Assembly: GCF_030384885.1 (NCBI RefSeq) | Contig: NZ_CP128613.1 | Source of the DNA: Escherichia coli | GTDB lineage: Bacteria; Pseudomonadota; Gammaproteobacteria; Enterobacterales; Enterobacteriaceae | Strand: one strand, 5' to 3' | DNA length: 64,000 nucleotides | Shown here: positions 30,001 to 31,756 of the stretch, one piece after another | How the letters are laid out: each line of letters opens with the position of its first letter | How positions within the stretch are numbered: the first letter of the stretch is position 1 | Position numbers: made by a program

Positions 30001-31756
30001 GGTGTGGCATTAAGCGCCGGAATATATTCGTATTTTTTCCCGCCCGCACCGAGGAAGACTTCACGGTTTTGCTCGGCAATCTCTTCCAGCGTCTCCAGAC
30101 AATCTGCAGCAAAGCCCGGGCACATCACCTGAATATGACCTACGCCTTTTTCTCCGAGCATTTTCAGCGTTTCGTCGGTATAAGGCATCAGCCAGGGTTC
30201 CCGCCCAAAGCGCGACTGAAAGGTCATCATCACTTTTTCCGGTGCCATCCCCAGTGCGGAAGCCAGTTCGCGAGTCGTTGTGCGGCAACGTTGCGGATAA
30301 TCATCGCCTTCATCTGCATAACGCTGGGGAATGCCATGATAAGAGAGCAGCAGCAGATCCGGTTCGCCATGTTTAGCAAAAGAAGCACGTACGCTGTTCG
30401 CCAGTGCATTAATGTAATCGTGGTTATCGGCGTAATCACGAATAAACGATATCCCCGGAATGCTACGTTTGCGCGCCAGAATGCGTGCCAGCTCATCCCA
30501 TACCGCACCGACCGTTGAACAGGAGTATTGCGGATAAAGCGGCAGCACCACGATATGATCTACATGCTCTGCCAGGAGTTCATCTACGGCGCTTTCCAGT
30601 GATGGCGAGCCATAACTCATTCCCAGCGCCACGGGCATATCCGGTAAGCGTTGTGCCAGCGCCTGCTGTTGCTGACGGCTGTAAACCATCAGCGGCGAGC
30701 CACCTTCCATCCAGACAGAGGCATACAACTTCGCCACACGCGGCGAGCGCAGCGGCAAAATCACGCCGCGCAGCAACGGCCACCACAACAGCCGTGAGGT
30801 ATCAACCACGCGTCTGTCGCTTAAAAATTGTTTCAGGTAGCGTTTTACCGCTTCAGGAGTGGGGGCATCGGGTGTACCCAGGTTTGCCAGCAGAATACCG
30901 GTTTTAGTTTGACGCATTACCGCCTCTTATCGATTCAACTTGTTGATAATTGTAGCGGAAAAGTGAAGAAGAAGAACTAATTGCTGTGAGAGGCTAAATC
31001 AGAAAATATCATAAGGCGCTGTATCTTTAATGAGAGATTTTTGCCAGCGCCAGATTTTCCAGAAGGTGCTATTGCGTCACGGGGGTACCATTGACGTTAA
31101 GTGTATATGGCCAGATTAAATTTGATGCCCTACCACACATTGGTGTAGGCGTTCTGAAAGTGGTCCTGATCGTATACTCTCCGGCTTTCTGGGGAGTGCC
31201 TGAAAATTTTACCCACGCCTCTTCGGTCAGAGAATCTGTATTCTTTTTCAGAAACTCTGCATTTTCTTCCGTGATGGGGAAAAGTTCACCCTCTTTGTTT
31301 TTTGCCCACAATGACATTTGTATGCCTTCAGGCAAAGTTTCAGGCTTTTCGGGACGAATGTCCGGGGCTTCATACCAACTTATGGTCGTTTTTACGACGG
31401 TTTCGTAATACTGGCCCACCTGAGCATCAGGAAGCTCTTGTTTTTCATTAACTTTATCATTACTTGTAACATGAGAAAGAGCTACACCGACGTAACACAT
31501 AGGCATTTCACACCCTGTCAGCAATGACGCAAGCAATAAAATACCTGTTGGTAATAAACAGCGATAACGCATATTTACGTCCTTGTTAAAGGCCGGAAGC
31601 GTATCCAGCCTCCAGTTGCTGGCAAAGTGCGCTTTGTTCATGCCGGATGCGGCGCGAACGCCTTATCCGGCCTACAAACTGACAAGTTTGTAGGCCTGTT
31701 CCCCTCCCCCTCTCCCCGAAGGAGCGAAGGGACTGTCCGTGCGCGCTTTCGAATTA

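Follow-up and report, generated by a model that had tools for sequence, protein, structure and literature searches.

The genes adk (adenylate kinase) and hemH (ferrochelatase) are neighbors in Escherichia coli. In the genome considered here, the spacer between them contains a small lipoprotein gene and several repeats. The question raised by this locus is whether the lipoprotein gene entered the spacer recently or is an old gene that has been lost elsewhere. A preliminary description of the region treated the segment as an insert that carries a scar of the adk 3' end. The analysis covered a window of 64,000 nucleotides, and all positions refer to that window unless another genome is named. We consider it fairly likely that the intergenic region is polymorphic and that its rare 836-bp allele keeps an old, intact accessory gene. 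Judged by sequence comparison, the lipoprotein gene is most likely ancestral and mostly lost, rather than inserted. As a case of patchy gene retention, the locus is ordinary and does not represent a new kind of system.

Organization of the adk-hemH locus

Four genes are arranged in the same direction on the minus strand: htpG (34453..32579), adk (32398..31754), the lipoprotein ORF (31572..31069), and hemH (30917..29955). The aes gene lies on the plus strand and is convergent on this block. From the coordinates of adk and hemH, the spacer spans positions 30918-31753 and is exactly 836 bp long, as first described. The upstream neighbor of the lipoprotein gene, adk (31754..32398, minus strand), encodes the same protein as in K-12, and its DNA is an ordinary clade I allele. 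The downstream neighbor is hemH (29955..30917, minus strand).

Both ends of the spacer are recognizable in K-12. Direct sequence comparison revealed that the 25 nt directly after the adk stop codon, TTCGAAAGCGCGCACGGACAGTCCC (31729..31753, minus strand), are common to the K-12 allele. The 89-bp hemH-proximal spacer (30918..31006, minus strand) includes the hemH promoter and leader region and is 96.6% identical to the K-12 allele; its last 76 bp are also present in the 131-bp allele described below. Between this segment and the lipoprotein gene is the 3' flank of the gene (31007..31068, minus strand), which is conserved in E. whittamii and holds GGCAAAAATCTC, the right-hand junction of the putative K-12 deletion. 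In total, 151 bp (31068-30918) separate the TAG of the lipoprotein gene from hemH.

Over 5.5 kb, the locus is 100% identical to that of E. coli strain 2013C-4282, and among 5,426 complete E. coli genomes this is the only strain in which htpG is 100% identical. Strain 2013C-4282 belongs to Escherichia cryptic clade I, according to a study that includes 465 clade I genomes (PMC10100065). Across the same 5,426 genomes, the adk-hemH spacer has a 131-bp allele (2,506 genomes, including O157:H7), a 235-bp allele (2,913 genomes), and the gene-bearing 836-bp allele, which is found in three genomes (2013C-4282, 2017-02-2CC, and RMDEC465). In MG1655, the interval from the end of adk (497819) to the start of hemH (498055) gives a spacer of 235 bp, and W3110 agrees. 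The figure of about 131 bp that had been given for K-12 is thus the length of the other common E. coli allele. The absence of the segment from K-12 was stated correctly, and the lipoprotein gene is missing there. The 131-bp allele has 55 bp of its own for which no homology was detectable in the other alleles; the only matches were 10-mers at chance level. The spacer is a clean PCR-sized marker polymorphism, with lengths of 131, 235, and 836 bp; of the two core genes that bound it, adk is an MLST locus. The practical value of this is modest.

The lipoprotein gene

The lipoprotein gene (31069..31572, minus strand) is composed of 167 codons followed by TAG. From the start at 31572, the ORF reads MRYRCLLPTGILLLASLLTGC..., and the first 21 codons (31510..31572, minus strand) form a signal peptide with the basic n-region MRYR, the hydrophobic core CLLPTGILLLASLL, and the lipobox LTGC at residues 18-21. 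The lipobox was identified by translation and a regular expression, [LVI][ASTVI][GAS]C, and its G20 and C21 are invariant across the family. Translation and the lipobox bear out the earlier reading of a minus-strand lipoprotein with a mature protein of 146 amino acids. At position +2, Escherichia and Salmonella have Glu, and a group of Enterobacteriaceae metagenome-assembled genomes (the MAG group) has Ser; Asp does not occur there. A Shine-Dalgarno sequence, AAGGA (31580..31584, minus strand), is located 7 nt before the ATG at 31572. The junction TTTTACA(A/G)GGA...ATG is common to E. whittamii and the MAG group. In Salmonella, the junction reads TTTTTACAAGTATGTAGATATG, in which TTTTACAAG is kept and the GGA core is missing. 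The ORF at 31572..31069 is a real gene.

Identical DNA is annotated in RefSeq as either a 190-aa or a 167-aa product. The 190-aa start, which was assigned by PGAP in two genomes, was rejected because the extension would cross the REP element and the terminator hairpin and because the upstream region of E. whittamii is too short for it: only 45 bp remain to the adk stop codon, in frame and with no start codon. The RefSeq annotation of this gene needs correction.

The gene has a GC content of 0.438 and a GC3 of 0.405, compared to 0.52-0.54 for adk, htpG, and hemH, and the segment had rightly been called AT-rich. In Escherichia and Salmonella taken together, the GC content of the gene is 0.44 and that of the flanks is 0.52-0.56. 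In the MAG group, the gene (0.553) is close to its flanks (0.557-0.591). Low GC is a usual sign of foreign DNA, and its occurrence in the Escherichia and Salmonella genes counts against retention.

Repeats and hairpins in the spacer

The spacer contains a REP element, GCCGGATGCGGCGYRAACGCCTTATCCGGCCTAC (31642..31675, plus strand), which has 0 mismatches to the REP consensus and contains its imperfect palindrome. A REP had been placed at 31641-31703 in the preliminary description; the match to the consensus spans 31642-31675, and the adjoining palindrome ends at 31696. Four REP copies occur in the 64-kb window versus 0 expected in shuffles. The site also has a partial match to the REP-derived naRNA4 (E 2.6e-4), which is the sole Rfam match in the spacer, and E. 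coli genomes have a median of 4 places that match the spacer repeats. The tail of the REP and an inverted partial copy of that tail form a perfect palindrome (31669..31696) with 12-bp arms and a 4-nt loop that is predicted to fold as a stable hairpin. Adjoining the REP is a BIME-linker-like motif (31616..31641, minus strand). Linker and REP make up a block of ~90 bp that has 89% identity to the pfkA-sbp spacer of other E. coli. The element resembles known REP/BIME sequences in its exact consensus match, its multiple copies, its extragenic position, and the likeness of the block to the pfkA-sbp spacer.

Closer to adk is a degenerate BoxC/PIT/TMECO repeat, CCCTTCGCTCCTTCGGGGAGAGGGGGAGGGG (31701..31731, minus strand). 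K-12 has an intact element, TMECO no. 6, at the same position (MG1655 497843-497878; Table 1, PMC4666352). A search of the 64-kb window with the TMECO consensus, CCCTCNCCC-N3-6-GGGNGAGGG-N3-GGGNGAGGG, returned no copy, and the element at 31701-31731 fails this consensus. It is like known BoxC elements in being GC-rich and in occupying the position of TMECO no. 6, but this copy is degenerate, and by its sequence and place it is a remnant of that element. The REP and BoxC repeats are of ordinary, known kinds and are passengers in the spacer, with no evident link to the lipoprotein gene.

A terminator-like hairpin of adk, GGCUGGAUACGCUUCCGGCC, followed by UUUAACA, was found by fold prediction (31591..31610, minus strand) and lies 18 nt before the lipoprotein start codon. 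This hairpin is present in every allele, including that of K-12, and has equivalents in E. whittamii, Salmonella, and the MAG group. The degenerate BoxC repeat (31701-31731) and the adk hairpin (31591-31610) are additions to the features listed originally.

The 3' flank of the gene (31007..31068) contains two short, adk-like repeats that are A/T runs. The preliminary description had noted that positions 31028-31068 resemble the end of adk. The short direct repeats are real: positions 31055-31063 match 31767-31775 at 9/9, and positions 31036-31047 match 31763-31774 at 11/12. However, an equally good alignment to the end of adk is obtained with ~1% of random genomic 51-mers, and the motif, an A/T run, is missing from the Salmonella locus. 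A scar of the adk 3' end was rejected on these two grounds. As a sequence match, the adk-like flank is indistinguishable from chance.

A small family of lipoproteins

Word-indexed and exhaustive HMMER searches with two profile rounds, among 5.8 billion proteins, placed the lipoprotein in a family of 9 clusters at 90% identity. The Escherichia members come from E. coli, E. whittamii, and strains TW10509, HH26CH, and 79.0191. The E. whittamii orthologue has 93% amino acid identity. The Salmonella orthologue is found in rare S. enterica serovars (~53% amino acid identity), and the MAG group (P0003, P0032, P0033, and P0034) has 35-38% amino acid identity. More distant homologues occur in Pseudomonas sp. 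F1_0610 and a relative (27-30% identity) and in P0056 (~28%). Every one of the 9 clusters, and hundreds of assemblies, have an intact ORF. It is conserved outside of this genome, with orthologues in E. whittamii, Salmonella, and the MAG group, and is absent from K-12; neither of the refuting outcomes named in the preliminary description was observed. A scan of 100,044 GTDB species representatives with a single peptide pattern matched only E. whittamii.

Across 10 sequences, down to 27% identity, residues G20, C21, C26, L47, P48, A50, P81, G83, W120, G125, G131, M145, C146, G147, and L158 are invariant. No Pfam match was found at E<=10 for the single protein or at E<=0.1 for four members, and NCBIfam, PHROGs, and PADLOC returned no match. 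A literature search found no paper on a lipoprotein gene in the adk-hemH intergenic region. The proteins form a lipoprotein family that is very small and lacks annotation; its general kind is known.

The dN/dS of the lipoprotein gene is 0.42 versus E. whittamii, where dS rests on only 8 synonymous differences, and 0.27 versus Salmonella. The neighboring genes have values of 0.004-0.044, so that the lipoprotein gene is ~6-100x higher. Versus Salmonella, the dS of the gene is 1.29, compared to 0.74-1.57 for the flanks. Overall divergence from E. whittamii is 4.0% for the lipoprotein gene, 3.6% for adk, and 6.7% for hemH. By these sequence estimates, selection on the gene is relaxed but purifying.

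Origin of the gene-bearing allele

The position of the gene is shared between genera. The Salmonella orthologue is located between adk and hemH, as are those of P0003, P0032, and P0033, and the wider gene order is rearranged in the MAG. The distance from the adk hairpin to the gene is 17-20 nt in E. whittamii, Salmonella, and the MAG group. K-12 keeps both junctions, the hairpin, the 3' flank, and the BoxC insertion that directly follows the stop codon of adk, and is without only the stretch from TTTTACAA/GGA to GGCAA/AAATCTC (a slash marks each junction). The short alleles are more likely to be derived, by deletion or replacement, because orthologues occupy the same position, because their synonymous divergence is like that of the flanks, and because K-12 shares the junctions and the BoxC repeat. 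These same observations speak against the framing of the segment as an insert with an adk-like scar. The 235-bp allele of K-12 is probably a deletion derivative of an 836-like allele.

A sequence of events consistent with these comparisons can be proposed. The ancestor of Escherichia and Salmonella would already have had the order adk, terminator hairpin, lipoprotein gene, and hemH. In the E. coli lineage, a BoxC/TMECO element, and here also a REP/BIME fragment, would have landed between the adk stop codon and the hairpin. A deletion of ~0.55 kb may then have produced the 235-bp K-12-type allele, with one junction just after the hairpin (TTTTACAA/GGA) and the other in the 3' flank (GGCAA/AAATCTC). 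The 131-bp allele would be a separate replacement. The gene-bearing haplotype probably now moves within E. coli by homologous recombination. This last step is suggested by the three carriers, which have 0-1 mismatch over the 836-bp spacer and 2 in adk, versus 0.8-3.8% divergence in htpG, hemH, and aes; near-identity in the spacer between strains that have diverged on both sides points to movement by homologous recombination. Recent import from E. whittamii was rejected: the flanking adk is an ordinary clade I allele, and the divergence of the gene matches that of its flanks.

The main alternative is recent horizontal insertion, in which a small foreign islet would have entered the spacer of a few lineages and the short alleles would represent the ancestral state. 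Its appeal lies in the composition of the gene (GC 0.438 and GC3 0.405 versus ~0.53 in the flanks), in its extreme rarity in E. coli, in the identical sequence carried by three otherwise differing strains, and in the short stretches, on the opposite side of the gene from adk, that repeat the adk 3' end in direct orientation. Rarity is also a cost to vertical descent, which needs many losses because the gene occurs in only 3 of 5,426 E. coli genomes and, in the GTDB scan, only in E. whittamii. Against insertion, no tRNA gene and no integrase or transposase ORF was found in the spacer, and tblastn against plasmids and phages returned no homologue of the lipoprotein. As for the marks of a genomic island or mobile insertion, only short repeats at chance level flank the gene, which removes the adk-like repeats as evidence. 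The same site and related junctions are found in three lineages separated by dS ~1, K-12 keeps the hairpin and 3' flank along with the BoxC insertion common to the gene-bearing allele, and the adjoining adk is an ordinary clade I allele. Recent insertion is thus unlikely, and retention of an ancestral gene is the preferred reading.

The locus is similar to segregating presence polymorphisms at core-genome junctions in that three alleles (131, 235, and 836 bp) occur between the same core genes and in that the gene-bearing haplotype is shared through recombination among diverged strains. Unlike those polymorphisms, the adk-hemH gene has no mobile-element signature and has same-site orthologues across genera, which resembles retention and not gain. 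The locus illustrates that a core-genome junction can conceal an accessory gene of old age whose survival is limited to divergent lineages, here clade I, E. whittamii, and rare Salmonella serovars.

Expression

A simple promoter and terminator scan of the spacer gave nothing above chance on the minus strand, with no sigma-70-like or promoter-like site between adk and the lipoprotein gene. The hairpin and the ATG of E. whittamii and Salmonella are too close together for a promoter to fit in. The most economical model is, for this reason, that RNA polymerase reads through the adk hairpin, and the gene would most likely be transcribed in this way. The U-tract after the hairpin is only UUU here.

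Predicted fold and role of the protein

AlphaFold models of the lipoprotein contain a low-confidence N-terminal tether and a confident beta-sandwich domain. The AF2 pLDDT was 73 with 4 sequences and 78 with 11 sequences, and the core domain reached 85-94. The modelled domain has an inserted segment of ~30 residues, with a short helix at precursor residues 102-110. Foldseek against the PDB returned only generic Ig-like matches (TM 0.35-0.46). Against AFDB, the matches were small uncharacterised lipoproteins (E 1e-9 to 1e-4, TM up to 0.66-0.68). A profile search by sequence against the PDB returned only noise. A protein with Cadherin_4/Big_9 repeats was linked weakly by sequence (E 5e-4; hhalign probability 52%). 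On these models, the predicted fold is an Ig-like beta-sandwich nearest to dystroglycan/cadherin-like domains, and the matches are moderate.

Asp at position +2 is the Lol-avoidance signal in lipoproteins of Enterobacteriaceae. By the standard lipoprotein pathway, Sec would export the protein, and Lgt, LspA, and Lnt would then lipidate it at Cys21. Lol would carry it to the outer membrane, since the residue at +2 is Glu and not Asp. The mature protein would consist of a short tether and a single Ig-like beta-sandwich domain of the dystroglycan/cadherin-like type, and a Cys26-Cys146 disulfide probably staples the tether to the domain. The case for this disulfide comes from the invariance of the two cysteines, because the tether around Cys26 was modelled at pLDDT <50. 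Most likely, the domain would be a small binding module for an envelope protein or glycan. Taken with the models, the protein is probably an outer-membrane lipoprotein that acts as such a module. Genomic context revealed no functional partner, and the Pseudomonas and P0056 homologues are in unrelated neighborhoods.

Several known domains resemble the lipoprotein in part. Among dystroglycan-type cadherin-like or putative Ig domains (SMART CADG; Pfam He_PIG, PF05345; bacterial Cadherin_4 and Big_9 repeats), the He_PIG consensus is resembled by the pattern LPxAxxGxxY ... LPxG ... SGTPxxAGxY in its sequence. Unlike those domains, the lipoprotein has no Pfam profile match, its domain stands alone with a lipid anchor, in place of the many repeats of a large surface protein, and it has the ~30-residue inserted helical segment and a conserved Cys pair. 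Classical cadherin repeats have the Ca2+-binding motifs DxD, DxNDN, and LDRE, and unlike them no such motif is visible in the lipoprotein sequence. The AFDB lipoproteins of Enterobacterales and Pasteurellaceae (for example, A0A9Q4CPE0 of Morganella morganii and proteins of Aggregatibacter, Kluyvera, Buttiauxella, Xenorhabdus, and Serratia) are alike in length (125-167 aa), lipoprotein annotation, and predicted fold, but have only 12-23% identity and were missed by sequence and profile searches. A0A9X5RFI4 and A0A6G6TIY2 are further AFDB neighbors.

A bolder reading joins fold, expression, and origin. In it, the proteins would be an unrecognised family of disulfide-stapled, cadherin-like, single-domain outer-membrane lipoproteins, linked to the adk terminator from a time before Escherichia and Salmonella split and expressed by read-through, and would have been repeatedly purged from successful lineages as costly, for example as a phage or colicin receptor or as a target of host immunity. 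We consider this combination distinctly unlikely. If it were true, a different ecology would be signaled by the survival of the gene in cryptic clades I and II. Clade I strains are emerging intestinal pathogens (PMC10100065), and the family could merit tests of envelope, adhesion, and phage-receptor roles in these strains.

The main functional rival to the binding module is an inhibitor or immunity factor that acts in the periplasm or at the outer membrane, for instance by blocking proteases in the manner of chagasin or by protecting against a toxin, phage, or colicin. I42/chagasin-family proteins and the PbICP-C inhibitor are among the weak Foldseek matches, but these chagasin-type folds score no better than generic Ig-like domains, and neither a Pfam I42 match nor a PADLOC match was found. 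The nearest AFDB neighbors include many small uncharacterised lipoproteins of Enterobacterales and Pasteurellaceae, and fast evolution with a patchy distribution would fit a role in conflict; however, no partner toxin or protease gene is nearby in any context. The chance that the protein is such a factor appears slim, and a binding module remains the preferred role.

It is very improbable that the gene is a decaying relic, with an ORF that is intact by chance or was recently freed from selection and makes no functional protein. Three observations would fit a relic: dN/dS (0.27-0.42) is ~6-100x that of neighboring genes, almost all E. coli and Salmonella have lost the gene at no evident cost, and no promoter of its own was detected. 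On the other side, the ORF remains intact throughout the 9 clusters and hundreds of assemblies, dN/dS is clearly <1 over dS ~1.3, Escherichia and the MAG group have a Shine-Dalgarno sequence (that of Salmonella is less clear), and neither the lipobox nor any of three cysteines varies among sequences with as little as 27% identity.

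Allelic variation in the adk-hemH spacer

Among complete E. coli genomes, the adk-hemH spacer occurs as three alleles, of 131 bp (n=2,506), 235 bp (n=2,913), and 836 bp (n=3). The 836-bp allele, which harbors the lipoprotein gene, spans window positions 30918-31753. The 235-bp allele, the K-12 type, is represented by L004:1355-1589, and the 131-bp allele by L015:5901-6031. The 131-bp allele possesses a different hairpin inside its unique 55 bp, and no homology of these 55 bp to the 235-bp or 836-bp alleles was detectable.

The K-12 spacer contains the published BoxC/PIT/TMECO element no. 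6 (MG1655 497843-497878), and raised variability has been reported around TMECO elements (PMC4666352). A degenerate copy of this repeat is located at window positions 31701-31731, the site equivalent to K-12 TMECO no. 6. The presence of multiple adk-hemH spacer alleles is consistent with the raised variability near these elements (PMC4666352). The REP and its adjoining ~50-nt linker motif (window 31588-31678) share 89% identity with part of the pfkA-sbp spacer in other E. coli (L020:1201-1288). As in the adk-hemH spacer, a terminator-like hairpin lies just downstream of this block.

Spread of the gene-bearing haplotype

Across htpG to aes in the three E. coli carriers (L001-L003), a ~1.5-kb block composed of adk and the spacer is near-identical, with 0-3 mismatches, while divergence in htpG, hemH, and aes amounts to 0.8-3.8%. 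Because adk and the spacer are near-identical and the surrounding genes have diverged, homologous recombination is responsible for the spread of the gene-bearing haplotype among the E. coli carriers. Compared to E. whittamii, aes (window 28999-29958) is far more divergent than its neighbors: nucleotide identity is 86% in aes but 93-96% in hemH, adk, and htpG. Among the three carriers, aes identity is 96-97%.

In Salmonella (L021-L028), one exact Adk protein variant neighbors the lipoprotein gene; in all 8 of the contigs sampled, this variant and the gene were adjacent, suggesting a linked adk-lipoprotein haplotype or a single lineage. The Pseudomonas-group homologues (L007:6001-6465 and L012:4001-4477) have a conserved context, but one that differs from adk-hemH: fatty-acid degradation genes are found upstream, and a converging, glycosyl-modification-like YdjC-GtrA-GT2-PMT operon is found downstream.

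Annotation of the lipoprotein gene ends

From identical DNA, RefSeq/PGAP annotates a product of 190 aa in two genomes (e.g., L001:3000-3572) versus 167 aa in the third (L002:3069-3572), with the N-terminal extension encoded at window positions 31573-31641. Salmonella copies are annotated as 164 or 168 aa, and the conserved form is 151 aa. The long product forms, which extend across a REP as well as the adk hairpin, are almost certainly incorrect. At the other end of the gene, the TAG stop codon (31069-31071; region considered down to 31029) is followed by 13 in-frame sense codons (HLLENLALAKISH) and then a TAA. This in-frame extension, which has another length in E. whittamii, is probably without meaning.
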